From an uncultured Bifidobacteriaceae bacterium (GTDB lineage: Bacteria; Verrucomicrobiota; Verrucomicrobiia; Limisphaerales; JADLHS01): DNA of 57,648 nucleotides. Both the position numbers and the translations under genes were made by a program. Positions 9,501 to 53,962 of the stretch are shown here, piece by piece. Location: contig CAYWCK010000001.1 of NCBI GenBank assembly GCA_964456685.1, forward strand, positions 1 through 57,648, written 5' to 3'. The notes below the pieces were generated by a model. It made no database searches, had not been told where the DNA came from, and was given only the letters and a program-made list of their open reading frames with translations. The number at the start of each line of letters is the position of its first letter. Position 1 is the stretch's first letter.

Positions 9501-9617
9501 GGCGGCCACTGCCGGGTCGGCGTCCTGTGCGGATAGCTTCAAGCCCAGGAATGCAGTTGCACCGAACAGCGAAACTGCCAGCAACCTCCTGCACGACGTT
9601 AGACTTCTTAGTTTCAT
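6588..9617 (-). CDS. Giant secreted protein: N-terminal module of unknown function, a calcineurin-like metallophosphoesterase domain, Ig/cadherin-like repeats, a thrombospondin-type-3-like Asp-rich segment and a C-terminal 'FYRL' domain
   Basis: The ORF track gives 6588..9719. I prefer Met35 (ATG at 9617), which begins a signal peptide (MKLRSLTSCRRLLAVSLFGATAFLGLKLSAQD). Metallophosphoesterase motifs are ALPDTQFY, HLGDFSQNGD, VGNHDEE, IIVTHN and LAGHVTGEG. The Asp-rich segment is GADDDGDGETNLQEYYANTNP. The protein ends ...GQRFYRLKVIQ. Confidence 0.75.
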   Translation of the reverse strand: MKLRSLTSCRRLLAVSLFGATAFLGLKLSAQDADPAVAAALINVVQHDISNTVDSVTVTATLTVGDLTIREDSNRGDFNLQIGIGFSDDVDNGVVMTCVAQNGRDNGEATYPGVNYCTTAIDYSRSGGSAGAFYIPVFQAPTGDEFNINIAAAFFSYSNWLAGFARNSGATNGGPNDLFTGSPGLVLGTHYVNVGGGTNIVNLTSFGVDARTDGVLLVTHGKNEDNYALSQVNSNNGTWTVYVKDNGTDAGSYEQDPVAFVYIPKTNTTVISGRFRGDGTRLIYSGATPAYTVTNTATGTWRLTIPGHSPDGGVLIISAEGGLSQNQDNIVSYQPDGDGWIIQSRDLPASSPGLQTPGGGGEPVASFVFIPAAATAAVVAPLHNAVGQPNSPNLQVNVSNAAPGNLTVSYYGRVAQVNPAVDFSIVALPDTQFYTGELNGGTKEMFIAQAEWIITNRVSRNIAYVAHLGDFSQNGDIKSGADNRTEWRNGTNAIYRLEDSGRTLLPGGIPYGVAVGNHDEEPIGDSTGTTLFYNEYFGVPHFTGKPYYAGHWGTNNNNHFDFFSAGGMDFVVVYLQFDNTLNPQWLNWANDVLRTNQNRRAIIVTHNFGNTSIPVSFSAQGTAIYNAVKTNKNVFMMLAGHVTGEGWRADTYQGNTVRTFVSDYQGWTNGGSGFMRIIDFSPSLNQVVLTTYSPYFKTYATGPISDFWFDYDMSHPVGSNGGPYALIGTISNVPSGNLASLPWPSRQSNTAYEWYVVVNDEVGNSTTSPAWRFTTAPNTAPTVANALITIYGDAPTNLNLVAVDPNGDTLTFQTNTLPTHGVLKPFTPVGGAYTYIPVRGYRGSDRFTFSAHDGTAGSSIATMNFNIVAPPDANASGLPDGWEAMFGISNPGADDDGDGETNLQEYYANTNPTNAASVLQIGSATRAANGHVTLVWPTVGGTRYRVQYANGNGGGGVDGNFIDVVRPLNVEMDPAPYGTPSSETFVDDYTQTGGAPPNGQRFYRLKVIQ

Positions 9618-9679
9618 CTCCACTTGTTTCCGACGGTGGTCCCGCTTTGGGGCGAGAAAAAATCCGTCTTTTTGAACAA

Positions 9680-9707
9680 GCCGCAGGGCGGTTGCCCACC
9701 CTGCGGC
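9680..9707 (-). other. GC-rich hairpin between the two giant genes (possible intra-operon attenuator or mRNA-stabilising stem)
   Basis: A 9-bp perfect stem gccgcaggg (9680-9688) / ccctgcggc (9699-9707) with a 10-nt loop. No convincing U-tract follows on the minus strand, so it is not a clear terminator. Confidence 0.35.
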
Positions 9708-9753
9708 GTTGTTACTCACCTACAACCCAATCCCACCAACTCCAAAGAACCGA

Positions 9754-12700
9754 TCAAGGTATGGACGCTTTGTAGAACGCCGCCCCAGCGGGAGCAGTGT
9801 TGTCCACAAAGGAACCGGTACCACCGCCCGTGAAACTACCACTGCCGATATTGACATAGGTGCCGTCAACTGTGGTCGAGCGCCAGATGGTGAAGCCAGC
9901 TCCCGCCGGCCCACTCAGACTGAGCGTGGCACTGGTGGCCCCGCGGCTGATGTAAGTAATCACCGGCGCGGGGCTATAATAGACGCGCAAGAGCGGGCGG
10001 CTTTCCACCCACCCGTGATCGGCCGAATTAAACGCCCAGCCGTTATTGCCATTCGGCCAAGGCATTATGGCCCAGCCATTGTTGGCCGCGGCACCGCTCG
10101 CCCACGCCTGAACGTCGGCTGTGATTTCGATGTTGTGTTTGGTTGGCTGCACGGTTTCGCCCAGACCAGCGACGGGCAAGGTCACAGTTGGAGAAACCGC
10201 TGCATCCACACCATCCGTGTCCACGCCATTGATCCAAATGTCCCAGGTGTCAGCCGCGTTCCAGGATTTCAAAACGCGATAGAACTGAGCACCCGCACCT
10301 TGAGCATCGGCATTGATACTGGTTAGTTCGAGGATAGCTGCATTGATCCTTGATCCCGCCGGCACCTGGCCAGCGCTGCTGCCAATAATGTTGTCGAACC
10401 GAACCAGCACGTCGTTCTGATTTGGAACTGGAGTGGCCGCGACCAGCCAGTCGGGCGAGAGCACTGTGTTGCCCGCAAAGCTGGTAGTGGGGGCCGTCAG
10501 GCGGACTTGGGTGTCCACGGCGGCGCTGTAACCATTGACACCCTGCTGGAAGGTGGCCACTTGGCTTGAAGCCGGTGGCAGCCAGCCGACGCGCAAACGC
10601 GGGCGCAAGGTGATGTTGGTAGCTTCACACGGACTGAAGGCGGTACCATTCGCCCCATTCGTCCACGTACTCATTACCCAGCCGTAATTGTTCGTTCCGT
10701 TTGCCCAAGCCTGCACATCCGCAGTGACGCCGATGGTCCGCAAGCCAGTGCCGCTGGTTGTATTAGCCGCTTCATCACCCAAAAACGCATTGGTGCCCGA
10801 CACCGCCTCGATATTGTCCAATTGGATGCCGCTGCCAACGCTGTTGAAGGTAATCCCTTCATCCCAATCGCCGAGCATCCGATTGAAACGCGCGCCGTGA
10901 CCGCTATCGGCCACGTTCATAATCAATTCCGCGAAGACGATCTTGGCGCCGAGCGGAATCTGACCATCAGCATTGCCGACCAAATTGGTGAACTTGATGA
11001 AGCACTGCATCTGATCCTCGGGAATGATACTCAACGTGTCGAAATCTATCCACAGCCCCGCCGAGCTATAACCAGCCGGGAATGGCGTGTCGGGGAACTC
11101 GTGGTGGATCTGGGTATCGAGCGCGCTGGTGAACACGCCAAACCCGCCGTCCGCATCCTGCTGGTAGCTGTCGATGCGCATCAGTCGGATGGTGATTGCT
11201 TTGCCAACAGTGCTGACACCCCCATCGCCATCAGCGAGGGCAAACGAAAGCGTGCGGCTTTGCGGTGCGGCGCTGGCGTCCACATTCTGATAAGAAATGG
11301 CCCGAGCCAGCGCTTGAGCCGCCGCTGGAGTTGCGGCAGCGCTATTAAACGTGATGCTTAACGGAGTAACACCCACGCCGCCACTCTTCGTTCCGATAGC
11401 AACGCCTTCATAGGAAACCGTGCTTCCGGAAACCGAGATTTGGCCCGTGCCGGTGCCGATGTTGCGGACATCCAGCCGGTCGGAAGCGGTCGCGCCAGCC
11501 GTGATCGTGACCGTCAAACCACCGCCATTATAATCGGCAGTGTCTGGATCGTTCACGGTGGCATAACCATCAATACCCTTGGCGGCTTCACCAATACCGT
11601 AGGTGAACGTGCCGGATGGCAGCGTAAGTACGGCTTCATTGTCGAGTGTGGTCACACCCACGTCGTCCGGATTGATTGCCGCATAAAGCGGGTCGGTGCT
11701 GCTGACGGTCGTGATGATGGTGAAGTCAATCGGGCCATCATTGGTGAGATCGTCCACCGCGGTGACTGTGACATTCTGCGGAACATTCCAGTTGGCGGGG
11801 GTGAAGACTACTGAAGGCGTGACGGTGCCCTCGGTTGTGTCGCTGGATGCGCAGTTGATCGTCACATTAGCCGTCGGCTGACTGCCGAGAACCAGAGCAA
11901 AATTTGCGGTCGTGTTTGGCTCCGAAATGGTGAGTTTGCTAGCGGGAACAATGACGCGGGCCTGATCGTTATCCAAGTTTACACCGGCAGGATCAAGGGC
12001 GTTAAATCCATTGTAAGCGCCATCAGTGCTGGTGGCTGGGCCCAGCACAACGGTGTATGCAATGTTCCCGTCCTGCACGTCGTCATTGACGCCGGTCACG
12101 GTCACCACCTGCGGCGTGGCATAATCCGCGGGGGTGAAGGTCAGGCTGCTCGGTGACACCGTGGCTTCAGTGGTGTCGCTGGAGGAAACTGGCACGGTTA
12201 CATTATCTGTGGGCGCTGAAGTGAGCCAGACCAGGAAAGTGTTGGTACCACCCGATTCCGTAGTGATCACAGTGCTGGCGTCAACCGAAACCGCGCCCGG
12301 CTCGTTGTCCAGATTAACCAAACCAACGGTGCCTCCGCTCAGGGCGTTGTAATTGAGGTCGGTACTGGTCGTCGCTGACAGAGTAACGTTGTATGCTTTG
12401 CTTCCATCTGTCAGAACATCTTCCACGCCTGTGACGGTGACGGATTGCGGTACGTTCCAATCCGAAGGAGTGAAAGTGAGCGTTGTCGGACTGACCGTTC
12501 CTTCGGCGGTATCGCTCGACGCGACATTAATGGTCACGTTGTTGGTCATCTTGGGATAACCGTTGATGGTGACGGTGAAATTCGTGGCGCCGCCAGACTC
12601 GGTGGTCTGGAGGTTTGCGGTGGGTGCAATTGTTACACCCGGCTTCTCCGCTGGGATAAATACAAACGAGCAAACCGCTTCGGTGTCGGGTGGCGTTTGG

Positions 12701-13866
12701 AGTCCGCAGCCCGGGAGGTCGCGCGACTGAATTATCCAGCCATCACCAGCTGTATTCTTAGCAAAGGTCACGATGTTATCACCATTGTTGGCGTCGCCGC
12801 CAGCGGGCGATACAATCAGGATGCCATCTGCGGGAGACCGTCCGGGAATCTTGAGTTCATATTGGCCGGTGCTGAAATTGGTCACGGTAAACGCCGGGGA
12901 AGCGCCGCTGTGAATGGCGATGGCAGCATCACCCATGAACATTCCTGAGACGATCGTTGTGTCGGCTTTCGGCACAAATACGAAAGCAACAGGGTCTTGT
13001 TCATAGGAACGGCCATTGGCCCGATTGTCATGGGTATAGATCGTCCAAGTGCCATCCATTTCGTCGTCATCATTGTTGACGCGAGAAAGGGCATAGTTGG
13101 CTTCGTTCTTTGCGTGGTTCACCAAGAGGACACCATCGCGGCGTGAGTCAATTCCAAAGGGCCGAAGATCGAGGTAGTAAACGCCATTTGCCACCGCGTC
13201 GCTGATGGCGCTGTTGGTCCAGTAATCCCGGAAATGCGTTCCCAAAACCAAATCTGGAGAAGCAATTAGATTCGTTAGTTCCAAGCCGTTGGCACCGTTC
13301 AAGGCGTAACCGCCACGCCACGTCGTAAACGGAAAATACGCCACGGTGACATCCACATTGTCCTCACCTTGGTTGGCCGTGGTGCTGGAATTCGGCGGGC
13401 AGCGGAATATGCCTGCTTCCCAATAGCCACCCCCGTAAGGAATCGCGCAGGGGGTTTGAAAGTTGTTCGTGAAAGCGCTCGCGCCGTTGGTCCAGTTGGC
13501 CCGGCCGTTTTGGGCCGATGAAACCATGATTACGCCAGCGTTTGTATCATCGGCGAAGCTATCGCCGATCTGGACTCGGTAGTCTCCCATGTTGACAACA
13601 TTACTCACCACCGACAGCCCATTTACACTCATCAGGAGTGCGGCGGTGGTGTTGGTGTTGTCGTAATATCCGGCGACGGTTTGATCGATCTTGAGATAGC
13701 CGGCCGAAATGTTGTGGCCGACGCGATCCGCGCGGGCGTTTGTGGCCAATCCCAAGCCCGCAAGAATTGCGAGTACTAGGAACAGCTGGTTCAAGCGCGG
13801 AAGCGCGTGCCTGAGGGAGTCGCCTGGGATGCGGCGCATTTCAGTGGTTCGTGCAGTTGGTTTCAT
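9754..13866 (-). CDS. Giant secreted protein (1370 aa): the same N-terminal unknown module as the 1043-aa ORF, three Calx-beta/cadherin-like repeats, two DNRLRE-like beta-sandwich repeats and a C-terminal 'FY' domain
   Basis: Signal peptide is LFLVLAILAGLGLATNARA. The N-terminal roughly 310 aa are collinear with the 1043-aa ORF at 6588..9719 (YEQDPVAFVF, GDGWIIQSRDLP, FVFIPA). Three repeats of about 110 aa contain SSDT(A/T)E(G/A)TV(S/T)P..LTFTP..W..PQ.VTVTGV.D. Two later repeats resemble DNRLRE-type domains (FDNIIGSSAGQVPAGSRINAAILEL...FYRVLKSWN). The domain family names are tentative. Confidence 0.75.
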   Translation of the reverse strand: MKPTARTTEMRRIPGDSLRHALPRLNQLFLVLAILAGLGLATNARADRVGHNISAGYLKIDQTVAGYYDNTNTTAALLMSVNGLSVVSNVVNMGDYRVQIGDSFADDTNAGVIMVSSAQNGRANWTNGASAFTNNFQTPCAIPYGGGYWEAGIFRCPPNSSTTANQGEDNVDVTVAYFPFTTWRGGYALNGANGLELTNLIASPDLVLGTHFRDYWTNSAISDAVANGVYYLDLRPFGIDSRRDGVLLVNHAKNEANYALSRVNNDDDEMDGTWTIYTHDNRANGRSYEQDPVAFVFVPKADTTIVSGMFMGDAAIAIHSGASPAFTVTNFSTGQYELKIPGRSPADGILIVSPAGGDANNGDNIVTFAKNTAGDGWIIQSRDLPGCGLQTPPDTEAVCSFVFIPAEKPGVTIAPTANLQTTESGGATNFTVTINGYPKMTNNVTINVASSDTAEGTVSPTTLTFTPSDWNVPQSVTVTGVEDVLTDGSKAYNVTLSATTSTDLNYNALSGGTVGLVNLDNEPGAVSVDASTVITTESGGTNTFLVWLTSAPTDNVTVPVSSSDTTEATVSPSSLTFTPADYATPQVVTVTGVNDDVQDGNIAYTVVLGPATSTDGAYNGFNALDPAGVNLDNDQARVIVPASKLTISEPNTTANFALVLGSQPTANVTINCASSDTTEGTVTPSVVFTPANWNVPQNVTVTAVDDLTNDGPIDFTIITTVSSTDPLYAAINPDDVGVTTLDNEAVLTLPSGTFTYGIGEAAKGIDGYATVNDPDTADYNGGGLTVTITAGATASDRLDVRNIGTGTGQISVSGSTVSYEGVAIGTKSGGVGVTPLSITFNSAAATPAAAQALARAISYQNVDASAAPQSRTLSFALADGDGGVSTVGKAITIRLMRIDSYQQDADGGFGVFTSALDTQIHHEFPDTPFPAGYSSAGLWIDFDTLSIIPEDQMQCFIKFTNLVGNADGQIPLGAKIVFAELIMNVADSGHGARFNRMLGDWDEGITFNSVGSGIQLDNIEAVSGTNAFLGDEAANTTSGTGLRTIGVTADVQAWANGTNNYGWVMSTWTNGANGTAFSPCEATNITLRPRLRVGWLPPASSQVATFQQGVNGYSAAVDTQVRLTAPTTSFAGNTVLSPDWLVAATPVPNQNDVLVRFDNIIGSSAGQVPAGSRINAAILELTSINADAQGAGAQFYRVLKSWNAADTWDIWINGVDTDGVDAAVSPTVTLPVAGLGETVQPTKHNIEITADVQAWASGAAANNGWAIMPWPNGNNGWAFNSADHGWVESRPLLRVYYSPAPVITYISRGATSATLSLSGPAGAGFTIWRSTTVDGTYVNIGSGSFTGGGTGSFVDNTAPAGAAFYKASIP
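11635..12636 (-). repeat. Three tandem in-frame coding repeats of about 330 bp (Calx-beta/cadherin-like domains) inside the 1370-aa gene
   Basis: They cover aa ~411-522, 523-635 and 636-744. Each contains (V/C)(A/S)SSDT.E.TV.P...FTP..(W/Y)..PQ.VTVT.V.D...DG. The repeats are diverged at the DNA level. Confidence 0.7.
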
Positions 13867-13940
13867 GGTTTGGGCTGGTTGTTCTTGGGTGGGGTCAAAT
13901 GAATTTACGGCGGGTAGGAGTTGGTGACGGCAACAGTTTT

Positions 13941-14765
13941 TCAGTACGGCCCGGTCGGTCCAAGATAATTAGAATCGCCGCCGATGTTCCAGACGCGGAG
14001 AAAGTTCTTCTTTGTGACCCACTCAGCATGACCGTCCAAGAACGCGAACACTTGGCCTTCGGCTCCGTGATTGTCCATCTTATCGGGCCAATTGTTATAG
14101 TCTCCGGCACCGGCGTCATCGTCACCATCGGTAATCATGAAGGCTTCGGAAGGGCTGACTCTGCGCCCGATTCCGCCCGGAACGTAATTCTGGAGCACAA
14201 AGCTCGACAACCGGCGTTCGCTCTTCTTGCCAGGAACAGTCGTGCTGGTGCCCCAGACACCGAAGCATTCATAGCTATGGCCGTTGGAATCAATCGCCCG
14301 TCCGTTGTTCGCCAAGTCCGCAATGACGACCTTGCTGTTCCAGCCGGCGGCAGCGATGGTAACCGTGTTGGTGCGGATTTTGTTGCGAGTGCCGGGGCAG
14401 ATAAAAGCCCCCGTGCCAGGAACATAAGTTGGGTTCAGCCAGCTCAAATCATCATCGGAGCCGCTGCGAGTACCACCGGAAGGGATGTTTGGAATCTCAC
14501 CAGGAACCCAAGTATCACCACAAAAGTCACCATTGCTATCATCGGCGTACATCATGGAGCCGAGACCCAATTGCTTTAGATTGTTCAGGCAGCTGGTTTG
14601 GATGGCTTTCCTCTTGGCGCGAGTCAGGGCCGGCAAAAGCATGGCGGCCAGAATTGCAATGATGGCAATAACGACCAGCAATTCGATCAAGGTAAAGCCG
14701 GTCCGGCCGGCGCGACGCGCATTTCCCCCGCACGTCGAGGACTTCAGATGGTGTTTCATTTTCAA
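13941..14765 (-). CDS. Prepilin-type N-terminal cleavage/methylation domain protein with a DUF1559-like 'H-X9-DG' C-terminus (pseudopilin-like)
   Basis: The N-terminus [27 protein letters not shown] is a canonical type IV pilin/T2SS pseudopilin leader plus hydrophobic helix. The C-terminus carries FLDGHAEWV. It is the first gene of the long minus-strand gene string. Confidence 0.8.
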
Positions 14766-18402: not shown

Positions 18403-21153
18403 TCACCGATGGGCCACGATTCGATAGAACGCTCCGCCTGCCGGCGGCGCCGTATCGGTGTATTGCGTCGTGGTCAGGTCCCCGGTGAGATCCACCAGGT
18501 TGTTCACGGTCGTGCCGCGTTGGACGCGGTACCTCACTGCGCCCGCGTTCTGCCATTCCAGTTGGAAAGAGTTCCCTACGCGGACAGCCTTGGTAACGGG
18601 GAACGACGGCATGGCAAACGCCTCGTTGTGGAGGATGATCAATCGACCGCCGCCGCCATTCGAGAGGCTGCTGTCGGTGACGACCAGGAAGTCGCCATTG
18701 GGCGCAAATGCCATACCGGGATCGTGGAAATCAATCTGGCGATCCGGACGCAACAAGTCGGTGAGGGGGAATCCGATCTCGCGCACGTCGGCGCCGGTCG
18801 AGGCGTCCACCGACCACAACTCGTCCTTCAGGTCATCCGCCACCCAGATTCGGCCCGTCGTGATATCCGTGGCCAAAGCGGCGCCGGAAGCGGGACCACC
18901 CAAAGGCCATAGGGTGAGTGCGTTGATGTAGCGGAGCGCGCCGCTGCCATTGATCGCCACCAAATAGCCGTCTTCACTCAGCGTCACGACTTCGCCTGAC
19001 GCCGGCAGCGCCGTGATCGCATTGAGGTTGTTCCCGAGATCGGAGCCAGACGGGGCATTCAGGAACAGATTGTAATTGGTCTGGTCAAGAGATGTTGTGG
19101 CCGGATCCACCACATAAGTTGCGTTGGGCGCATCGCCGTCCACACCGCGGTCAGCCACGACGATCCAGCCCGGCTGACCAACACTGCCAGTGAAGTTGAA
19201 AGGTGCCACCGCAACGTCGATGGCATCGTCATCCAAATTGGGGGTTGCGGAAGAACTCACGTCCGCGATGATCGTTTCGGGCACATTGCTCGTCCACGGC
19301 CACTTCAAGCGGGCGAGGGAACGCGTGAAATCATTGTTGAAATCGTGCGTCCACCAGATCGTGCCGTTGGTCTGGATGGCCAGGCCGGAGGGCCGGTCCA
19401 AGCCGCTGACGATGGGAGTCGGATCAATGGCCCAGTTGCCGCTGCCGATTTTCTTCGCTTGGTAGATGCCACCCCCGGCGACATCGGTCGTGAAAAGAAT
19501 CGTGGAGTTATCCCGAGGATCCACCGCCGGCCGGCCCACGGGACCGTTCACGCTGACGATGCTCCAGTTGGTGAAACGCGTGCCGTAGTTCGTAATTCCA
19601 TAAGGTTCACCTAGAGATGCGGGATTCGACACCAGCGATTTGACCTCGATATCATCAATGTAAACCGGCGGATGGTTGGTCCCATTGGAGGTGCTCCATG
19701 CCGCCATGAAGGTAGGACCCCAATTGGCCGCCGAGCCGACGAAGGCGGCCCGATCGACCAGCAATATTGGGTTGGCGCTGCTGGGATTCTTCACAATGGT
19801 GTATCGTCCCTGAGTGTTGTGGGTCGTGAGTCTGTATTCCTCCCAAACATTGGGCGTGTAATCGGCCGTGGTATCCTGCCAGCCGTTCAAGAAATAGATC
19901 AGCGAGGTGCCGTCCACGCAGTTGGTATTGCTTTGCCGGCGAATGCCATGTCCCAAAAGCGCGGAGTCGCCCGCGATGGTGTTGCCACCTTCCGCACCAT
20001 ACAGCGACATGCGGAGGTAAACAGCATCGTCAGTGGGATTGATCTGAACGGCTTCCGGCACCTTGGCCCACCAGGTGACTTGAACATCTGATTGCGGCGG
20101 CACGCCCCAGGCCAGGCTCGCACCCGCGCGTTGTCCGCCTTCAAGCTTGAGGCACTTGCTGCCGGAGTGCGGCGTTACAACGTCCGTGCCCACCACTTGC
20201 ACTTTACCGGGAGCGCGCAGACGGCCCTGACCAGTGCCATCCACTTCGGTCGTAATCCACGGTCCCTGGGGATCGGCGTCATCTGTGGACAAACTCCGCG
20301 CGGGATAATTTTCAAAGCCATCCGTGAAGGTGGTGCTGAGGTCGCGCGAGTCATCCACCGTCAGGCTGATATCGTCCAAAAATACGCTCCCGTCGTCCGC
20401 CGTGTTGCCTTCATTGCGCAAAATGATGTGAGAAATGACTGGAACTTCGCACCGCGAGAGGTCCGCGTTACTGAGCACCGGCGTGACCATATCGTCAATG
20501 TAAAGCGTGAAGGTTTGTGCATTTGGATCGATCACCATGCGGTGATGCTGCCAGACATAATTCAGGTGGTTGGTACCTACCGCAGTGAATGCAGCTGTCC
20601 CAGGCCCCACGGCATCGAAGTAATACAGCGCAGAAGAATTAGTGGCGCGGTCGGTGCGATAGGCGAGGAAATCATCGCCGTTGATGTCGGTGCCCTCGCC
20701 CCGCAGGATGACGTAAAAACTCTGACTGCTGGTGGGCCCGCGGCCAATCCACGCGTTGAAGTCAAATTGATAGCGCGTCCCACTGCGTGCACCGGCGAGA
20801 TATAATTGCGCCTCGCTGCTGGGCCGCAGAAGCAGCGACTTGGTGGCGCCGCCGCTGGCATTGGTGTGCCAATTTACCACTTGCACACCGGCTCCGGCGG
20901 TCGTCGGGAGCAACGCCGTGTCGTCGGTAATGTTCCATTCCGAGCCGACGGGATCGGCGTCCTGGGTATCTCCGTCGCTGGTAGCGACCGTGCCGTAGCT
21001 CTCGAAGTCGTTGGCGTAAATCGTCGCCGTGGCGGCGTGAAGTGGCGACGGTACGAGGCAGACGGCCACCGCCAGAACAGCGGTGAAAGCAGCTGTGATG
21101 CGCGCCAATATGGATGATACCTCGCGAATTTTGCCCTTGGTGGTTGTTTGCAT
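18403..21153 (-). CDS. Large secreted protein (916 aa), unknown function, with beta-propeller-like C-terminal half and a C-terminal 'FYRI' domain
   Basis: Signal peptide is ITAAFTAVLAVAVCLVPSPLHAA. I recognise no catalytic motif. Repeated strand-like segments (GGIYQAKKIGSGNW..., GLAIQTNGTIWWTHD..., GRIWVADD..., GDFLVVTD) suggest a propeller. The protein ends ...GGAFYRIVAHR. Confidence 0.7.
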   Translation of the reverse strand: MQTTTKGKIREVSSILARITAAFTAVLAVAVCLVPSPLHAATATIYANDFESYGTVATSDGDTQDADPVGSEWNITDDTALLPTTAGAGVQVVNWHTNASGGATKSLLLRPSSEAQLYLAGARSGTRYQFDFNAWIGRGPTSSQSFYVILRGEGTDINGDDFLAYRTDRATNSSALYYFDAVGPGTAAFTAVGTNHLNYVWQHHRMVIDPNAQTFTLYIDDMVTPVLSNADLSRCEVPVISHIILRNEGNTADDGSVFLDDISLTVDDSRDLSTTFTDGFENYPARSLSTDDADPQGPWITTEVDGTGQGRLRAPGKVQVVGTDVVTPHSGSKCLKLEGGQRAGASLAWGVPPQSDVQVTWWAKVPEAVQINPTDDAVYLRMSLYGAEGGNTIAGDSALLGHGIRRQSNTNCVDGTSLIYFLNGWQDTTADYTPNVWEEYRLTTHNTQGRYTIVKNPSSANPILLVDRAAFVGSAANWGPTFMAAWSTSNGTNHPPVYIDDIEVKSLVSNPASLGEPYGITNYGTRFTNWSIVSVNGPVGRPAVDPRDNSTILFTTDVAGGGIYQAKKIGSGNWAIDPTPIVSGLDRPSGLAIQTNGTIWWTHDFNNDFTRSLARLKWPWTSNVPETIIADVSSSATPNLDDDAIDVAVAPFNFTGSVGQPGWIVVADRGVDGDAPNATYVVDPATTSLDQTNYNLFLNAPSGSDLGNNLNAITALPASGEVVTLSEDGYLVAINGSGALRYINALTLWPLGGPASGAALATDITTGRIWVADDLKDELWSVDASTGADVREIGFPLTDLLRPDRQIDFHDPGMAFAPNGDFLVVTDSSLSNGGGGRLIILHNEAFAMPSFPVTKAVRVGNSFQLEWQNAGAVRYRVQRGTTVNNLVDLTGDLTTTQYTDTAPPAGGAFYRIVAHR

Positions 21154-40399: not shown

Positions 40400-40637
40400 T
40401 CAGCAATTTCAGGTTTGAGCTGTTTTCCGAGTTTTCGGTAATTCTCCCATCTGACTAACAGGCCGAGTTTTCCAGGGGCAGTTATCCTTTTCCCTGCCTG
40501 AGAGTCAGAGTTGTTGGGGCTTTCCTCGACGTCGATTCTCGGCGCCTCATTTCTCGCCGCTTGCCAATACCATTTTCCTTGCTCTGCGGCAGGGCAAAGT
40601 TTAACCAACAATCGGTCTTTGCAGCCTTCGAGATTAT

Positions 40638-42251
40638 ATGAACGATGATAGAATCAAACTTTGGGAACGTTTTCAGAAATACTATTTTGAATTCCCCTCT
40701 TTGGGGATGCGTTTGGACCTGAGCAGGATGCAGTTCGAGGACGATTTTATAGAGAGAATGCAGCCGCGTTTAGACGCTGCACTTGACGAAATGGAGGCGC
40801 TGGAAGCTGGTGCCATCGCTAACAAGGACGAAAATCGCATGGTGGGTCATTACTGGTTGCGTAATCCGGCACTCGCGCCATCTCCCCAGATCCGCCAAGA
40901 GATCGAATCAACCGTAACGAGAATCAAAGAATTTGCCGAGGATGTGCACTCCGGAAAGATTCGTGGGGAGAGGGGGCAGTTTAAGAACATTTTGGTGATC
41001 GGCATAGGGGGGTCGTGTCTCGGACCTCAGTTTGTTGCAAATGCCCTTGGCCATCCTAAGACTAATCGCCTGACTCCATATTTTTTCGATAACACCGATT
41101 CTGATGGGATGGAGCGAGTCCTTGCAACGATTGGCGAGGGATTAGGTACTACTCTTTGCATCGTGATCTCCAAGTCTGGAGGGACGCATGAAACCCGTAA
41201 TGGCATGATGGAGGCAATGGCTGCCTACGCAAATTTAGGTTTCGAATTCCGGAAGCACGCAATTGCTATAACACGTGAAGATAGCGAGTTACACAAATCC
41301 TCTGTCGCAAATTCGTGGCTTTGTTCTTTCCCAATGTGGGATTGGGTTGGAGGTCGAACGAGCGAACTTTCGGCAGTTGGATTACTTCCTGCGGCGCTTC
41401 TGGGCCTTGATATTGACGCCATGCTTTCAGGCGCGAAGCAATGCGACTCGGCTACAAGGAATAGACGATTTCGCGAAAACCCCGCATCGCAGTTAGCCTC
41501 GATGTGGTTTCACGCTGGCAATGGTAATGGGCTAAAGAATATGGTAGTGCTTCCATACAGAGATCGGCTGGAGCTGTTGTCGAAGTACCTTCAGCAACTC
41601 ATAATGGAATCCATCGGCAAACGATTCGACAGGGATGGACGCCAAGTATGTCAAGGCTTGACTGTGTTCGGCAATAAGGGTGCAACAGATCAACATTCTT
41701 ACGTACAACAGCTTAGAGACGGTGCAAACGACTTTTTTGTGCTCTTCTTGCAGGTCTTAAAATCCTCAAGAAGCTCGAATGTGCTGGTTGATGGTGAGTC
41801 CTCATCGGATGATTACTTGGCCGGTTTCTTCTTAGGTACGCGTCAGGCCTTGACCGAAGGTAACCGCGAGTCGGTGTCGCTGATATTTGATGAGGTGACG
41901 TCATTTTCTATCGGTGCCGTAATCGCATTGTTTGAGCGAGCGGTGGGTATTTATGCATCGCTTATTGGTGTGAATGCTTATCATCAACCAGGTGTTGAAG
42001 CTGGAAAAGCGGCCGCAGCTCAAGTCTTAGCCCTGCAGCGCAAGGTCATTTCGACCCTCAAGTCGGCTCCTGGAACAACCATGAACGCGTCTGAGATTGC
42101 AACAAGAATCGGCAATCCATCAAGCGTGGAGCACGTATTCAGTGTAGCCGAGCGATTAGCGATGTCAGGAAAGCATGGCATAAATCGACTAAATGGCGGG
42201 GGACCAAACTTGGTTCAGTTTGCTTATTTGCATACCGAAGTAGTCCGATGA
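40638..42251 (+). CDS. pgi: Glucose-6-phosphate isomerase
   Basis: 537 aa. Motifs are MVGHYWLRNP, VIGIGGSCLGPQF, ISKSGGTHET and GGRTSELSAVGL (PGI family signatures). GC is clearly lower than in the flanks. There is a 4-nt overlap with mnmG. Confidence 0.9.
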   Translation: MNDDRIKLWERFQKYYFEFPSLGMRLDLSRMQFEDDFIERMQPRLDAALDEMEALEAGAIANKDENRMVGHYWLRNPALAPSPQIRQEIESTVTRIKEFAEDVHSGKIRGERGQFKNILVIGIGGSCLGPQFVANALGHPKTNRLTPYFFDNTDSDGMERVLATIGEGLGTTLCIVISKSGGTHETRNGMMEAMAAYANLGFEFRKHAIAITREDSELHKSSVANSWLCSFPMWDWVGGRTSELSAVGLLPAALLGLDIDAMLSGAKQCDSATRNRRFRENPASQLASMWFHAGNGNGLKNMVVLPYRDRLELLSKYLQQLIMESIGKRFDRDGRQVCQGLTVFGNKGATDQHSYVQQLRDGANDFFVLFLQVLKSSRSSNVLVDGESSSDDYLAGFFLGTRQALTEGNRESVSLIFDEVTSFSIGAVIALFERAVGIYASLIGVNAYHQPGVEAGKAAAAQVLALQRKVISTLKSAPGTTMNASEIATRIGNPSSVEHVFSVAERLAMSGKHGINRLNGGGPNLVQFAYLHTEVVR

Positions 42252-44203
42252 CATTTCTATATCCCAAAGCGTACGATATAATTGTTATCGGTGGAGGGCA
42301 TGCCGGTGTAGAAGCCGCATTGGCAGCTGCTAGGATGCAATGTCAAGTTTTGCTGCTTACCATGAATCCGGACAGCATAGGCCAGATGTCTTGCAATCCC
42401 GCGATCGGCGGTCTTGGAAAGGGTCACTTGGTTAGAGAAATCGATGCGTTAGGTGGGGAAATGGGAATGAATACTGATCTTACAGGCATTCAATTCCGGA
42501 TGTTGAATACAAAGAAGGGTCCAGCCGTTCAGTCACCGCGCGCTCAATGTGATAAAAAGCTGTACCAGCAGCGAATGAAATGGGTTTGTGAGCGCGAGCC
42601 AAATCTCGACGTCAAGCAGGCGAATACCACAGCCCTTGTTTGCACGGATGGTAAAGTGGATGGGGTTGATACTTCAATTGGCGTTCGTTTTAGTTGTAGG
42701 GCTGTAATTGTCACGACTGGCACATTCCTTCACGGCCTAATGCACGTTGGTAGATCACAAGCTCAAGGCGGTCGCTTGGGAGATTCGGCGTCAACACATT
42801 TGTCATCATCACTGAAACAGCTTGGTCTTGAACTCGGCCGGTTGAAGACGGGAACTCCACCAAGGCTTTTGCGGAAGAGTATTGAGTTTTCAAAAATGCA
42901 GAGGCAGGTTGGGGATGACCCGCCCCCGTTCTTCTCCTACCGAGATCATCGCCTGTTCCACGTGGAACAAGCGCCTAGGATTACCGCTGGAAGTCATAGC
43001 AATATTGTGGCATTTCCAACAGGATCGGCACTTGCCCAAATTGGAAGTCAGCTTGATTGCTACATCACGTTTACAACTGAAGTAACGGCAGGATTGATCA
43101 AATCCAATATTTCCAAGTCGCCACTTTATGCCGGATCGATCAAGGGAGTTGGACCTCGATATTGCCCTTCCATTGAGGACAAAATCATGCGATTCCCCGA
43201 TAAGGAGCGTCATCAAGTCTTTCTTGAGCCAGAGGGGATAAAAACAGACGAGTTTTACTTGAATGGCGTTTCTACAAGCCTCCCATACGAAATCCAAGTC
43301 GAAATAGTGCGAAGCATCCCGGGTTGCGAATCGGCAGAATTGTTGCGTCCAGCCTACGCAGTAGAATATGATTTTGTTCTACCAACTCAGCTTAGTGCTA
43401 ACTTGGAAACGAAGTGTTGTAATGGACTGTTCTTGGCTGGCCAGATCAACGGAACATCTGGTTATGAAGAGGCAGCTGCACAAGGTTTGATGGCTGGCAT
43501 CAACGCCGCACACTTTGTTCGAAATAAATCTCCACTCGTACTAAGGAGAGATCAATCCTACATCGGTGTGCTCATTGACGATCTTGTAACAAAAGGAACT
43601 ACAGAGCCATATAGAATGTTTACTTCTAGGGCAGAGTATAGGCTTTTGTTGAGGCATGATAATGCTGACCAAAGATTGTCGCAGATTGGATACGAGCTCG
43701 GATTATTAAGTAGCGATGATTACAAACTGTACGTTGACAAGCAAACATCTATCAATGAAGAAGTTGTGAGATTGAAGAGCGTCCGATCTGGAACTCAAAC
43801 GCTGGCCCAATTGTTAAGAAGGCCGGAGGTGACTTACGATCAACTGCCAAGCAAAAACCCGGTTCTGCCGGATGAGGTTGTCCGCCAGGTTGAAATAGCG
43901 ATCAAGTATCAAGGTTACATAGATCGCCAAGGGAAGGATGCTGAGCGCCTCAAATCACTTGAAAAAAAAGGAATTCCCGACGGAATGGACTTTCTGTCCA
44001 TACGGAATTTGAAGATGGAGGCGCGCCAAAAGTTAGATCGAATTAGGCCTAAGACCCTAGGTCAGGCCGCAAGGATTTCGGGCGTATCACCTGCGGACAT
44101 CAGCGCCTTAGCTGTTTGGCTGAAGCGGTCACGCGCAAACTCAAAACCGCTTGGCGATGATGGACAGTCTCACACTTCGTGTGATTGCAGTGGTGAAGAG
44201 TAG
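42248..44203 (+). CDS. mnmG: tRNA uridine-5-carboxymethylaminomethyl(34) synthesis enzyme MnmG (GidA)
   Basis: YDIIVIGGGHAGVEAALAAARM at the N-terminus. Further motifs are MSCNPAIGGLGKGHLVREIDALGG, GPRYCPSIEDK, LAGQINGTSGYEEAAAQG and FTSRAEYRLLLRHDNAD. Confidence 0.95.
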   Translation: MTFLYPKAYDIIVIGGGHAGVEAALAAARMQCQVLLLTMNPDSIGQMSCNPAIGGLGKGHLVREIDALGGEMGMNTDLTGIQFRMLNTKKGPAVQSPRAQCDKKLYQQRMKWVCEREPNLDVKQANTTALVCTDGKVDGVDTSIGVRFSCRAVIVTTGTFLHGLMHVGRSQAQGGRLGDSASTHLSSSLKQLGLELGRLKTGTPPRLLRKSIEFSKMQRQVGDDPPPFFSYRDHRLFHVEQAPRITAGSHSNIVAFPTGSALAQIGSQLDCYITFTTEVTAGLIKSNISKSPLYAGSIKGVGPRYCPSIEDKIMRFPDKERHQVFLEPEGIKTDEFYLNGVSTSLPYEIQVEIVRSIPGCESAELLRPAYAVEYDFVLPTQLSANLETKCCNGLFLAGQINGTSGYEEAAAQGLMAGINAAHFVRNKSPLVLRRDQSYIGVLIDDLVTKGTTEPYRMFTSRAEYRLLLRHDNADQRLSQIGYELGLLSSDDYKLYVDKQTSINEEVVRLKSVRSGTQTLAQLLRRPEVTYDQLPSKNPVLPDEVVRQVEIAIKYQGYIDRQGKDAERLKSLEKKGIPDGMDFLSIRNLKMEARQKLDRIRPKTLGQAARISGVSPADISALAVWLKRSRANSKPLGDDGQSHTSCDCSGEE

Positions 44204-44550
44204 GTGTCTCCGGTGCGGCTCCGCAAGGAGGACATTGGAGGATAAGAATGCGCTTTGCCATTGCCGGGGCAAACTCATGAACGAAGTCTGGAGAGCACTT
44301 CTCACGTCCGACAAAATCTGTTCAAACTCCCCCACACTCAGAGGAACAGAACGACCGCCTGAACCTCACTCAATACATAACACTCGTGCAGACCGCTGCT
44401 GGTGCAATTGTTCCTTCTTGCCGGAAGTTTGGCCGCACATCGAACTCAATCAACTCAGCCTGATTGACACCGAGACTGGGCGGCGCGTTGACGTGGGGGC
44501 ATGCCCGGGACTATGCTGCGCCGCACTCCAGAATTTTCAGGCAATCGCCC

Positions 44551-46077
44551 ATGCGCCCACGGTTGCAACTCTTGAATCGCCAGCCCTTCCGCGGCATGTG
44601 GATTACGGCTCTGGTTGGCGTTGTGCTGGTTAGCCTGCCGCCTCTGGCTTGGCTGAGCTACGATGTTTCCCATCTCGCGCGGCCGCTCGTCGGGCCGGCG
44701 CACCCGATTACCAATGTTGCAATAATCTACGCCGACGAACTCACCAGTCGGGAACTCGGCGACGGTCGGCGTGTGCATTGGACGAACCACGCCCGATTGT
44801 TGGACCGGTTGACCCAAGACGGCGCCCGGGCGGTGCTGTACGATTTTGTGTTCGATGTCACCAACTCCGAGCCGCGCGCCGCCACCGTCTTTGCAGACGC
44901 CATTCGCCGACAGCAATCGGTGATTTTAGTGCGCCCTAAAGTAGCGCGCGACGGCGTTGAGATTTTGGAGTCTCCGTTGACCACGCTCGATAACGCTGCA
45001 CGCGGTGCCGGCCATGGAGAGCTTTTCGATGATGTGGTGCGCCGCTTGTCCGGGGATTACCTCGGCGTGGAATACGCCGGTTGGTTGGTGGCGCAGATCG
45101 GTGATTCCAATCGCTTGAGTTCGATGAATCGCAATGAAGAGCGCTGGCTTTGCTACCACGGGCTGCCGCCGAATCTCGGTCTGCAGACCTATCCTTTCGA
45201 GGACGTGATTTCCAACGCGGTTCCGCCAGGAACATTTGCTGGCAAGCTCGTCGTTGTAGGTGCGCAGTCTTCGGTGAGTGACATCGGTGCGCTCAAGGAA
45301 ACTTTTGCCACGCCATACGGACTATTCCGTTATCCGCGCGCGCCCGGGGCCGCCATTCACGCAACTGCCATCGCCAATCTGATGCATGGCGAGACAATGC
45401 GTCTCCTGTCTCGTTGGGAAGAATACTCGATCGCGGTTCTTTACGGTGTTGCGCTGATCGGGTTGCTATACAACTTGGCGCGACGCAGCCGGTTCGTGCT
45501 GATCGCGGGAGCCGTTATCAGCGGGCTGCTGCTCACACTCATTTCGCTCTGGGTGCAATGGCATTTCCACGTCTGGTGGGTGTGGCTGGCTGGTGCGGTG
45601 GGACAAACCACCACGGCGACGGTTTATGTTTGGAGGCATCGTCCGCGCGATCGATATGTCGCCTTCATCAGCTACCGCACCGAAGATGATGGCGCGGCGG
45701 CGTTGCTGATTCAGCGCAGTCTGGCCGACCGCGGCCTTAATCTTTTTCTCGACGTGAAAAGCCTCGAGGCCGGCCATTTTGATGCGCAACTGTTGCGTGA
45801 GATCGAGTCCGCCAGCTTCTTCGTGTTGATCCTCTCACCCAAGTCACTGGCGCGCTGTGCAAATCCAGATGACTGGGTGCTGCGCGAGTTGACGCACGCG
45901 CTGAGCAAAGGCAAACCCATTGTGCCCGTGTTCCGCGGCGGATTTAACTTTGACGCCAAGGAGCACATCCCCGACCTGCCGCAGATCGCCGAACTCCGCC
46001 GCTTTCAGGGGGTGCTGTATTCCAACGCCGACTTTGACGGCTTCATGGAAAAACTGGTGAAGCTGTTGAAGACTTAG
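44551..46077 (+). CDS. Membrane protein with an extracytoplasmic CHASE2 sensor domain, three further TM helices and a C-terminal cytoplasmic TIR domain
   Basis: The preferred start is Met30 (ATG at 44551).
- TM1: MWITALVGVVLVSLPPLAWL.
- CHASE2-like pattern: VAIIYADELTSRELG...WTNHARLLDRLTQDGARAVLYDFVF ... DDVVRR ... GKLVVVGAQSS..D...TPYG...PGAAIHATAIANLMHG.
- Three further TM helices span aa ~320-400 of the ORF.
- TIR-like C-terminus: YVAFISYRTEDDGAAALLIQRSLADRGLNLFLDVKSLEAGHFDAQLLREIESASFFVLILSPKSLARCANPDDWVLRELTHAL. Confidence 0.75.
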   Translation: MRPRLQLLNRQPFRGMWITALVGVVLVSLPPLAWLSYDVSHLARPLVGPAHPITNVAIIYADELTSRELGDGRRVHWTNHARLLDRLTQDGARAVLYDFVFDVTNSEPRAATVFADAIRRQQSVILVRPKVARDGVEILESPLTTLDNAARGAGHGELFDDVVRRLSGDYLGVEYAGWLVAQIGDSNRLSSMNRNEERWLCYHGLPPNLGLQTYPFEDVISNAVPPGTFAGKLVVVGAQSSVSDIGALKETFATPYGLFRYPRAPGAAIHATAIANLMHGETMRLLSRWEEYSIAVLYGVALIGLLYNLARRSRFVLIAGAVISGLLLTLISLWVQWHFHVWWVWLAGAVGQTTTATVYVWRHRPRDRYVAFISYRTEDDGAAALLIQRSLADRGLNLFLDVKSLEAGHFDAQLLREIESASFFVLILSPKSLARCANPDDWVLRELTHALSKGKPIVPVFRGGFNFDAKEHIPDLPQIAELRRFQGVLYSNADFDGFMEKLVKLLKT

Positions 46078-46184
46078 GGCGTGGCTCATTCGTGATTCCA
46101 GTGGGGCGAGCGTCCCCGCGAGCCGGCTCGTCAGGAGACTTGCCCGACCAGGCTCCTTCACCACTAAACCTCGCAGGCCCGACC

Positions 46185-46854: not shown

Positions 46855-47295
46855 TTAGGCCGCTCGTATTTCATCTCTCGGTGTCCTGAACTCAAAAGCC
46901 AACGCTACTAGTGATGCCAAAGTCACCGCAATCCACCACCAACCATAGAAAGCTATCTCGTCGAAAATCAAAATTTTTGGCCACTGTGACTCTGTGGCGA
47001 TGAGAAGTACGATAAACGCAGAATTGAAGACAGCTGAGAACAACCAAAAGGCAGCGGACAGAACAAGTGCTCGGCACTGTCGGCTGCGCCACCGCCAGCC
47101 AAGCCACACACCATATCCAACAAGAAAATAGATGCCTAACTGCCACATGCGCCACGCACGGTCGAAGGCAGACAGCAACCCGCCGAGAGTTGGAAGCAAA
47201 AGTATCACTGCCCAGATGATGCCAATGCGAAAGAGCCAGCGTGCGATGGTGCCGGGAATGTCACGTTGAGCAATCATGGCGTGTAAATCGGTCAA
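46855..47295 (-). CDS. Small integral membrane protein, unknown function
   Basis: 146 aa with four predicted hydrophobic helices and many Trp residues. GC is lower (about 45% by eye) than in the neighbours. I recognise no family. Confidence 0.5.
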   Translation of the reverse strand: MTDLHAMIAQRDIPGTIARWLFRIGIIWAVILLLPTLGGLLSAFDRAWRMWQLGIYFLVGYGVWLGWRWRSRQCRALVLSAAFWLFSAVFNSAFIVLLIATESQWPKILIFDEIAFYGWWWIAVTLASLVALAFEFRTPRDEIRAA

Positions 47296-47519
47296 GCGTC
47301 TAGATTAGCTGCCACTGAACAGCCAATCATTTCTATGCGGCGACCGTAAATCCGGTGGCCGCTGGCTGTCGAGCCGTTTCGGCGGAGCGCGGCTGGGTCG
47401 CAGACCAGCCGCAGCAAATGGGCGCGCGCTGCGACTGGCTTTCAGCACAGTCGCGCTCCGGTGCTTTCCCGCCGATGACAGTTCGCGCCCGACTCGCGTG
47501 TGTCCGGCCGCCGCTTTGT

Positions 47520-47599
47520 AGTGGGACAGGCGTCTCGCCTGTCCGGTCAGGCAGCCAGGCTTCCTTGCGCCACCGGACAGGCGAGACGCCTGTCCCACT
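47520..47599. repeat. Perfect 28-bp inverted repeat with a 24-nt spacer. Each arm is itself a hairpin (REP/MITE-like nested palindrome).
   Basis: Arm 1 at 47520-47547 is aGTGGGACAGGCGTCTCGCCTGTCCGGT. Arm 2 at 47572-47599 is ACCGGACAGGCGAGACGCCTGTCCCACt, its exact reverse complement. Inside each arm, GACAGGCG-N3-CGCCTGTC can fold on its own. Confidence 0.85.
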
Positions 47600-53407: not shown

Positions 53408-53962
53408 TCAAGCCGGCTTCAACCCACGCCGCCACAGGTCAAAATAGCTCAAACCCACCACGACCAACGAATGACGGATCTTCTCGGCGGCCACGAGTTT
53501 CATGACTTCGTCCACCGGCACGAGGCGGGTGATCAAATCTTCGCCGGAATCAAACTGCACGGGGTGCACGAGCCGGCAATTCTCCACAAGCACCGTGTAA
53601 CAGGTGTTGTTTTGGATCGCCGGATTCGGTGAGATCGTGCCCAGCAATCGCGCGTTCACGCCTTCGTAACCGGTTTCCTCACGCAGCTCGCGCACGGCTG
53701 CGGCGACCGGAGATTCGTCCCCATCGATCAACCCGCCGGGGATTTCCAGTTCCACAGTTTCCGAGCCGACGCGGAATTGCTCGATCATCACCACCTGCTG
53801 ATCCGTGGTGAGGGCCACAACATTTACCCAGTTCGCGCTCTCGAGCACGAAGAAGTCGTGCTCCTGGTTCGTTCGCGGGGAAATGCGTCGGTCGGAGCGC
53901 AGCTTGAAAATGCGAAAGTCTCCGAGCGGTTTTGAGCTAATCTTTTTCCACGGACGGATCAT
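53408..53962 (-). CDS. NUDIX hydrolase (ADP-ribose pyrophosphatase-like)
   Basis: The Nudix box is GGLIDGDESPVAAAVRELREETGY. Confidence 0.85.
   Translation of the reverse strand: MIRPWKKISSKPLGDFRIFKLRSDRRISPRTNQEHDFFVLESANWVNVVALTTDQQVVMIEQFRVGSETVELEIPGGLIDGDESPVAAAVRELREETGYEGVNARLLGTISPNPAIQNNTCYTVLVENCRLVHPVQFDSGEDLITRLVPVDEVMKLVAAEKIRHSLVVVGLSYFDLWRRGLKPA

Follow-up and report, generated by a model that had tools for sequence, protein, structure and literature searches.

The 57.6-kb stretch of uncultured verrucomicrobial DNA analysed here (contig CAYWCK010000001.1, 57,648 nucleotides; hereafter the window) encodes a protein in which a CHASE2 sensor domain is connected, through three transmembrane (TM) helices, to a C-terminal TIR domain (Table 1). 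On balance, we favour the view that the family to which this protein belongs constitutes an envelope-triggered, Thoeris-like TIR signalling pathway. Because an outer-membrane barrel gene and SLATT and patatin genes are conserved as neighbours elsewhere in the family, the family reads as part of a multi-gene pathway; the window copy, which has no partner genes in cis, is an exception.

A CHASE2 receptor with a TIR output

The earlier note on this DNA, made from the sequence alone, had proposed a CHASE2-TM-TIR fusion, and profile searches bear it out. Within the intact open reading frame (ORF), the Pfam model for CHASE2 (PF05226) matches amino acids (aa) 20-304 with an E-value of 2.9e-26 and 93 bits against a curated cut-off of 26.3, and that for TIR_2 (PF13676) matches aa 372-491 with an E-value of 2.6e-13 and 51 bits against a cut-off of 28. 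The TIR motifs quoted at the time, FISYRTED, DVKSLEAGHFD and DWVLRE (45871-45888), are all present.

Hydropathy alone identifies TM1 (aa 14-39) and TM2/TM3 (aa 292-339), while the fourth helix (aa 345-362) comes from an AlphaFold2 (AF2) model built on 30 relatives (mean predicted local distance difference test score, pLDDT, 84; predicted template-modelling score, pTM, 0.71). Lysine and arginine residues number four in the N-terminal tail, three in the TM2-TM3 loop (which is predicted to be cytoplasmic and carries RRSR), four just after TM4 and none in the TM3-TM4 loop; by the positive-inside rule, this distribution predicts a periplasmic CHASE2 domain and a cytoplasmic TIR domain. Hydropathy, charge counts and modelled helices thus agree on the previously suggested order of one TM helix, an extracytoplasmic domain, three TM helices and a cytoplasmic output, which is the topology of CHASE2 receptors. 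In the model, the beta-A strand of the TIR domain begins at residue 369, about seven residues past TM4, and everything N-terminal to the TIR domain is either membrane or periplasmic. The CHASE2 region of the AF2 model matched no solved structure in a Foldseek search. Judged by its profile matches, fold and catalytic residues, the protein is a member both of the CHASE2 receptors and of the TIR_2/SARM1-type TIR clade.

Table 1. Features of the CHASE2-TIR gene and its flanks (window coordinates)
Feature	Position	Strand	Residues, basis and remarks
CHASE2-3TM-TIR receptor, coding sequence	44551..46077	+	Intact ORF; 508 aa plus stop
Promoter-like site, TTGACG-18 nt-TATGCT	44488..44517	+	Consensus scan; 34 nt 5' of the ATG
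TM1	44590..44667	+	aa 14-39; hydropathy, charges; AF2 helices 12-27 and 30-42
Predicted periplasmic CHASE2 sensor domain	44668..45423	+	aa 40-291; Pfam PF05226; alpha/beta fold in the AF2 model
TM2-TM4 bundle	45424..45636	+	aa 292-362; hydropathy, charges; AF2 helices 288-309, 314-339 and 345-362
Predicted cytoplasmic SARM1-type TIR domain	45655..46074	+	aa 369-508
BB-loop segment DVKSLEAGHFD	45751..45783	+	Equivalent to SARM1 D594-E604; contains G408
Codon of the candidate catalytic Glu E446 (in DWVLRE)	45886..45888	+	DWVLRE aligned with DWVHKE
Imperfect palindrome (I3)	46101..46148		Between the convergent CHASE2-TIR and zinc-ribbon genes; inverted-repeat search

The TIR domain resembles that of SARM1

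A sequence search of the PDB with aa 362-508 retrieved SARM1 and Caenorhabditis elegans TIR-1 at E-values of 4e-20 to 1e-17, the next TIR being a plant protein at 0.013, and BLASTP of the window TIR against the SARM1 TIR gave an E-value of 1.5e-25. SARM1 TIR crystal structures were likewise the best Foldseek matches to the model (TM-score 0.82-0.84, root-mean-square deviation 2.5-3.0 Å, 34-38% identity), other TIRs (TIR-STING, RUN1, AbTir, PdTIR and SPARTA) following only at E-values of 7e-4 or worse.

We mapped SARM1 residues onto the window protein from a HMMER alignment, with the SARM1 numbering counted from known landmarks. The catalytic E642 corresponds to E446, the Glu that the earlier note had singled out, which is invariant in 30/30 aligned family members; the equivalent Glu is also invariant among 108 further representatives of the wider clade. 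Equally invariant in the 30-sequence alignment are W442 (SARM1 W638), G408 (G601), F410 (F603) and D411 of the BB-loop segment, and Y375/R376 (Y568/R569) and D401 (D594) are nearly so. The AF2 model has a SARM1-like fold, and D401, G408 and F410 lie in DVKSLEAGHFD. Sequence and model together point to a putative NAD+-cleaving domain of the SARM1 type.

SARM1 and TIR-1 are by far the best match in sequence and fold, the Glu, the Trp, the BB loop and Y568/R569 being common to both, but the window protein contains neither ARM nor SAM domains and is instead a membrane protein with a periplasmic sensor. As the ARM-SAM-SAM-TIR architecture is lacking and only CHASE2 and TIR_2 were found, the protein is no orthologue of SARM1. 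SARM1 itself, which carries out axon death by depleting NAD+, is regulated by its ARM domain, which senses nicotinamide mononucleotide and NAD+; regulation of the window protein must come via its membrane bundle.

The wider TIR clade has very many members: when 1.84 billion representatives were searched exhaustively with HMMER, 3469 matched at E<=1e-10. This search was used in place of a homologue search with the TIR domain only, which returned mostly short fragments uninformative for architecture. Among 108 scanned clade representatives, the TIR is accompanied by CHASE2 in four, an FGE-sulfatase domain in six, a protein kinase in four and WD40 repeats in three. Another membrane-anchored SARM1-type TIR, 46% identical to that of the window, is found in a metagenome-assembled genome (MAG) of a Methylococcaceae bacterium (locus L009, 5933-7111), where a PAP2-family membrane phosphatase domain is fused to a C-terminal TIR.

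Relatives pair the receptor with an outer-membrane barrel

We found about 35 full-length relatives carrying both CHASE2 and TIR_2, at 40-63% identity; those with a named source all come from Verrucomicrobiota MAGs, and clustering at 50% leaves a handful of representatives (P0011, P0168, P0075 and P0196). The CHASE2-TIR family is thus small and seen only in Verrucomicrobiota. Mean pairwise identity within it is 60% for the TIR domain, 47-48% for CHASE2 and TM2-4 and 46% for the N-terminus with TM1.

The neighbourhoods of orthologues were compared at 13 distinct loci besides the window. At 13/13 of these, a FecR-TPR-beta-barrel outer-membrane protein is encoded divergently and immediately upstream of the CHASE2-TIR gene. 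At its N-terminus this partner, about 1150-1190 aa long, has a FecR domain, followed by TPR repeats and, at the C-terminus, a TonB-receptor-like beta-barrel whose last residue is Phe. Proteins of the same barrel family (36-64% identity) also adjoin CHASE2 receptor paralogues at another 19 verrucomicrobial loci; the outputs of the paralogues that we scanned are an adenylate/guanylate cyclase (Guanylate_cyc), a Ser/Thr kinase (Pkinase) or a PAS-histidine kinase-REC module. Since the same barrel partner stands beside CHASE2 paralogues, the input of the TIR family would be the phylum's generic outer-membrane-to-CHASE2 relay, and, as far as sequence goes, only the output domain is exchanged in the TIR version.

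Comparable arrangements are known elsewhere. The CHASE2-kinase operon of Burkholderia (BiofilmReg) includes a FecR/LysM protein (PMC5192318), CHASE2-cyclases of Campylobacterota are clustered with a FecR-domain outer-membrane protein plus a TPR protein (PMC9239204), and the CHASE2 cyclases of Sinorhizobium meliloti perceive a plant protein through the outer-membrane barrel NsrA (PMC13001267). With these receptors (in S. meliloti CyaD1, CyaD2 and CyaK) the CHASE2-TIR proteins have the sensor module and the 1+3 TM topology in common, and, in relatives, the barrel encoded next door belongs to the family that also adjoins verrucomicrobial CHASE2-cyclases. They differ in that the output right behind TM4 is a TIR rather than a cyclase or kinase, and in that the partner gene is divergent, whereas it is co-directional in the known CHASE2 systems and lacking in the window.

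The modules of the receptor seem to have separate histories. Compared with the gene of P0006 (locus L052, 3790-5322), the window gene shows 42-59% nucleotide identity across the CHASE2 and TM part, jumping to 81-87% in the 3' part (window 45600-46077), from about nucleotide 1100, at the TM4/TIR boundary; at the protein level, the TIR domains are 91-92% identical and the CHASE2 domains 35-36%. Because identity jumps at this boundary, the mosaic pattern suggests that the sensor or the TIR module has been exchanged between lineages by recombination.

SLOG-SLATT and/or patatin genes lie near most relatives

A SLATT_1 protein (about 470 aa) and/or a patatin (about 380 aa) is encoded within 10 kb in 8/12 of the loci for which downstream sequence exists (L001, L002, L004, L005, L006, L048, L050 and L054). 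In L004 both genes come directly after the receptor gene in the same orientation (FecR-barrel 6241-9765, CHASE2-TIR 9962-11512, SLOG-SLATT 11855-13180 and patatin 13196-14332), as does the SLATT gene in L054. Neither turned up at the paralogue loci; a Fisher test reckoned with 25 such loci gives p = 1.3e-5. CBASS phospholipase-effector models of PADLOC recognise the patatin at 1.8e-42, its NCBIfam CBASS_lipase score of 122 bits being below the equivalog cut-off of 200. In its AF2 model (pLDDT 86), the SLATT protein has an N-terminal alpha/beta domain followed by long membrane helices; the best Foldseek matches of this domain are YpsA (TM-score 0.70), ShosA, DprA and LOG-family proteins, which belong to the SLOG superfamily. 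A PDB sequence search with the SLATT protein gave chance antibody matches only, the SLOG domain being visible by fold search.

The SLOG-SLATT family is widespread and also occurs beside TIR or TIR-like proteins in Acidobacteria and Planctomycetes: on a Terriglobales contig the SLOG-SLATT gene adjoins that of a 909-aa TIR protein, and in Pirellulales the genes after it encode a patatin and a DUF4062-TPR protein.

At two loci, a recurrent cassette stands beside CHASE2-TIR in differing orientations (L002, 11490-21485; L050, 6387-14652). It comprises a SIR2_2-TIR_2 protein (479 aa, 80% identical between the two loci), an nSTAND1 NTPase of 1399-1998 aa, which carries RHS repeats in L050, and a patatin; the L050 cassette also has a SLATT gene and that of L002 an S8 peptidase. 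Downstream of CHASE2-TIR in L049 (9841-19485) are genes for an 876-aa RyR-domain protein, a TIR_2-FGE-sulfatase, an inositol monophosphatase, a RelA/SpoT-TPR-RyR protein and a NUDIX hydrolase. Ryanodine receptors are a target of cyclic ADP-ribose (cADPR) in animals, which makes it curious to find RyR domains paired with a SARM1-type TIR.

These neighbours bear on the question of whether the receptor serves a physiological, non-immune purpose, with a TIR in place of the cyclase producing an ADP-ribose (ADPR)-type messenger for envelope or nutrient responses. The FecR-TPR-barrel's service to CHASE2-cyclase, CHASE2-kinase and CHASE2-histidine kinase paralogues would fit such a receptor, as would the housekeeping context in the window, the RelA/SpoT, NUDIX and inositol-phosphatase genes in L049 and the conservation of the TIR, which exceeds that of all other parts of the protein and does not look like that of an enzyme evolving fast in an arms race. 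We nevertheless judge this explanation improbable, because the associated SLATT protein and CapV-like patatin are typical cell-killing effectors and because SIR2-TIR and nSTAND1 conflict genes accompany some loci.

A proposed route from the envelope to NAD+

Under the envelope-triggered, Thoeris-like reading, the protein would be an inner-membrane receptor whose periplasmic CHASE2 domain controls self-association of the TIR domains via the three-helix membrane bundle. The outer-membrane FecR-TPR-barrel would hand an envelope or extracellular cue to CHASE2, a relay that we infer because it mirrors the phylum's CHASE2-cyclase paralogues and the S. meliloti NsrA/CHASE2-cyclase pathway. Canonical outputs of CHASE2 receptors (class III cyclases, histidine kinases and GGDEF domains) work as dimers with a geometry set by the membrane helices, and SARM1-type TIRs are active only once the TIR domains associate via the BB loop. 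With the TIR so close behind TM4, active TIR pairs could be put together directly when the receptor rearranges or clusters, and these would cleave or cyclise NAD+ on the cytoplasmic face. The reaction would yield a nucleotide derived from NAD, for which analogy with SARM1 and type VII Thoeris makes cADPR or ADPR the most plausible candidate. Binding of this nucleotide by the SLOG domain of the SLOG-SLATT protein would cause the membrane to be breached or remodelled, with the CapV-like patatin perhaps as a second effector and membrane damage or growth arrest as the outcome. By analogy, the family would then follow Thoeris logic with the trigger moved outside the cytoplasm.

This layout has precedents in Thoeris. 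According to a recent preprint, the type VII Thoeris TIR makes canonical cADPR that activates a SLATT effector (ThsH), SARM1 is also a cADPR producer, and a TIR plus 'SLOG and 4TM' or 'SLOG Patatin' are predicted Thoeris configurations (bioRxiv 10.64898/2025.12.03.692087). As in type VII, and in type III with its TIRs plus SLOG effector, a TIR gene lies near a candidate effector gene at 8/12 related loci, which is the layout of a TIR that makes the signal and an effector that reads it. The difference is that Thoeris TIRs, as described, sense infection intracellularly, whereas here a transmembrane receptor that has an outer-membrane co-sensor uses the TIR as its output, and that the window itself has no effector gene. 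On this analogy, CHASE2-TIR would act as a Thoeris TIR that is coupled to an envelope receptor, and it is plausible that it serves in defence.

Several observations weigh against this reading. The window TIR shows no significant similarity to type VII/VIII Thoeris TIRs and a weak one to type III TIR4 (8e-8, 28% identity over 90 aa). SARM1 H685 corresponds to N492 in the window protein, the His being unconserved. Four of the 12 relatives (L007, L046, L049 and the P0021 locus) have neither SLATT nor patatin within 10 kb, and the effectors in L002 and L050 could belong to the SIR2-TIR/nSTAND1 cassette, possibly a separate adjoining system. There are no partner genes anywhere in the window, whose genes are housekeeping ones. 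Finally, according to the same preprint, neither the 'SLOG and 4TM' nor the 'SLOG Patatin' candidates were protective when tested in Escherichia coli (bioRxiv 10.64898/2025.12.03.692087).

Membership of type VII Thoeris via the TIR sequence is unsupported, and, with no adjacent effector and a TIR unlike validated type VII/VIII TIRs, the window copy cannot be filed as Thoeris. Among profiles of known systems, NCBIfam ThcB4 (29 bits against a cut-off of 220) and PADLOC ThsB (8e-5) are weak matches to the TIR only, far below family cut-offs. In good agreement with the earlier suggestion that this architecture is uncharacterised, the literature that we searched contains no description of a CHASE2-TIR fusion; CHASE2, PF05226 and FecR go unmentioned in the text and supplementary tables of the above preprint, as far as these are available (bioRxiv 10.64898/2025.12.03.692087).

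A bolder proposal, which we put forward tentatively as a serious possibility, is that the family is a bacterial counterpart of Toll-like receptors, in which barrel and CHASE2 detect a surface event (for instance the adsorption of a phage, damage to the envelope, a molecule from a competitor or a protein of a host) and an NAD-derived messenger, probably cADPR-like, made by the SARM1-type TIR activates SLOG-SLATT and patatin. Animal Toll-like and IL-1 receptors follow the same logic of extracellular sensor, membrane span and cytoplasmic TIR. This is analogy only: they have a leucine-rich-repeat or immunoglobulin ectodomain, one TM helix and an adaptor TIR, whereas here there are CHASE2, four TM helices and a SARM1-type TIR.

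To our knowledge, bacterial TIR signalling systems (Thoeris and related) have so far been described as sensing infection within the cell. If the bolder proposal is true, this would be the first TIR or Thoeris-like pathway triggered from outside the cytoplasm, and a relative of SARM1 would be linked to a receptor in a prokaryote. A receptor-linked TIR with an outer-membrane co-sensor would shift sensing to the cell surface, as Toll-like receptors do in animals. It would also offer a simple bacterial model for the control of a SARM1-type NADase by membrane-proximal clustering. Moreover, CHASE2 inputs are poorly understood, and a lethal or easily measured output would make ligand screens of CHASE2 and the FecR-barrel practical.

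The window copy is intact, conserved and without partners in cis

The gene region is 99.98-100% identical among six independently assembled metagenome contigs, five of which span the junction with the upstream mnmG gene; the recurrence of this junction in five assemblies at that identity rules out a chimeric contig or assembly artefact between mnmG and CHASE2-TIR. A further copy (P0320), >90% identical, lies on an 87-kb contig.

We favour the ATG at 44551 as the start codon because orthologues start at the equivalent position and because of the promoter-like site upstream, both hexamers of which are kept, with an identical 20-nt block, ACTATGCTGCGCCGCACTCC, upstream of the closest orthologue (L002). 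An in-frame TTG at 44464, which would add 29 residues, is a possible but unsupported alternative. The block conserved with L002 stops about 70 nt upstream of the ATG, and further out lies mnmG, not the FecR-barrel gene. On this sequence comparison, the window gene keeps a conserved putative promoter of its own.

Searches of the window for partners were negative. In tblastn with two FecR-TPR-barrel proteins nothing was better than an E-value of 0.04, and queries with SLOG-SLATT, patatin, SIR2-TIR, nSTAND1 and other neighbour proteins found no partner either. Pfam scans of 38 further window ORFs matched only housekeeping or metabolic domains, and no SLOG, SLATT, patatin, SIR2 or Macro gene was found in the 57.6 kb, in keeping with the earlier claim that the window holds no partner. 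The partner-free stretch extends 44 kb upstream and 11.5 kb downstream of the gene.

Being intact, with its own promoter and no nearby partner, the window copy must have either unlinked partners or a function in NAD+ consumption alone. The earlier note had proposed a one-protein sensor-effector; in the stand-alone view, an envelope signal would switch on the TIR, and NAD+ depletion alone, as in SARM1-driven cell death, would lead to dormancy or abortive death with no downstream effector of its own. The premise of this view holds for the window, where no partner is near; it does not hold for the family, given the barrel at 13/13 loci elsewhere and SLATT/patatin at 8/12, against none of the latter at the paralogue loci. 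We regard this explanation as unlikely, though not negligible: that the copy persists without partners, intact and nearly identical in six assemblies and under a conserved promoter, speaks for it, as do the four relatives without nearby SLATT and patatin and the precedent of SARM1 itself, which acts by NAD+ depletion, but the partners of the window copy could sit outside the contig. The copy is in any case a natural partner-less instance in which to ask whether the TIR alone suffices. The surroundings of the window copy are of a housekeeping kind and do not form a defence island.

The absence of partners from the window and the unconserved H685 position could also be taken to mean that the TIR is a non-enzymatic adaptor or scaffold, as in animal Toll-like receptor signalling, or that the gene is a decaying remnant left after partner loss. 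Both are very improbable in view of the invariance or near-invariance of the catalytic Glu, W442, the BB-loop Gly and Y375/R376, and of an ORF that is intact, preceded by a conserved promoter and all but identical across independent samples. For the family as a whole, the envelope-triggered pathway remains our preferred reading.

Genomic surroundings in the window

The earlier note had described the gene as a high-GC one between low-GC segments, which inverts the actual pattern. With a GC content of 0.57-0.61, CHASE2-TIR is at the window norm (0.55-0.65), so that a high-GC foreign island is ruled out. The outlier is a sharply low-GC block (0.43-0.51, window 40600-44200) made up of pgi (40638-42251) and mnmG (42248-44203); downstream of CHASE2-TIR there is a short dip only. 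Low GC is unusual for these housekeeping genes, and because the block abuts the point where FecR-barrel synteny is lost, it is possible that pgi-mnmG is a foreign replacement or insertion.

Besides pgi, mnmG and the zinc-ribbon gene, the window encodes an MFS transporter, a glycerol-3-phosphate-oxidase-like DAO protein, HAD hydrolases, a GDPD protein, a GntR regulator, two M16 peptidases, a beta-CASP RNase, AddB, ThuA, GFO/IDH oxidoreductases, YceI, LptF/G, a GAF histidine kinase, 2-oxoacid:ferredoxin oxidoreductase-like subunits, cyclophilins, a NUDIX hydrolase and an ABC ATPase. The NUDIX gene (53408-53962, minus strand) lies 7.3 kb downstream; enzymes of this class are able to break down ADP-ribose, but nothing ties this one to the TIR gene. 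The small 4-TM protein at 46855-47295, considered as an effector, belongs to no Pfam family and is encoded past the zinc-ribbon gene on the opposite strand. Three large minus-strand ORFs (4474-6591, 9754-13866 and 18403-21153; 705, 1370 and 916 aa) have no Pfam match at E<=1e-5 and may encode surface proteins; a neighbouring ORF (6588-9719) contains Big_9 and cadherin-like domains.

The palindrome downstream of CHASE2-TIR has copies in intergenic DNA of L006 (17736-17769 and 19083-19107), and four Logan contigs end within it, 53 nt past the stop codon. By its sequence it looks like a repetitive extragenic palindromic (REP)-like element and is a possible bidirectional terminator. A GC-rich intergenic region (47383-47599) contains perfect 28-nt inverted repeats (47520-47547 and 47572-47599; core GGACAGGCG.CTCGCCTGTCC) and a second, imperfect 33-nt pair at 47383-47460, both pairs being REP-like hairpins.

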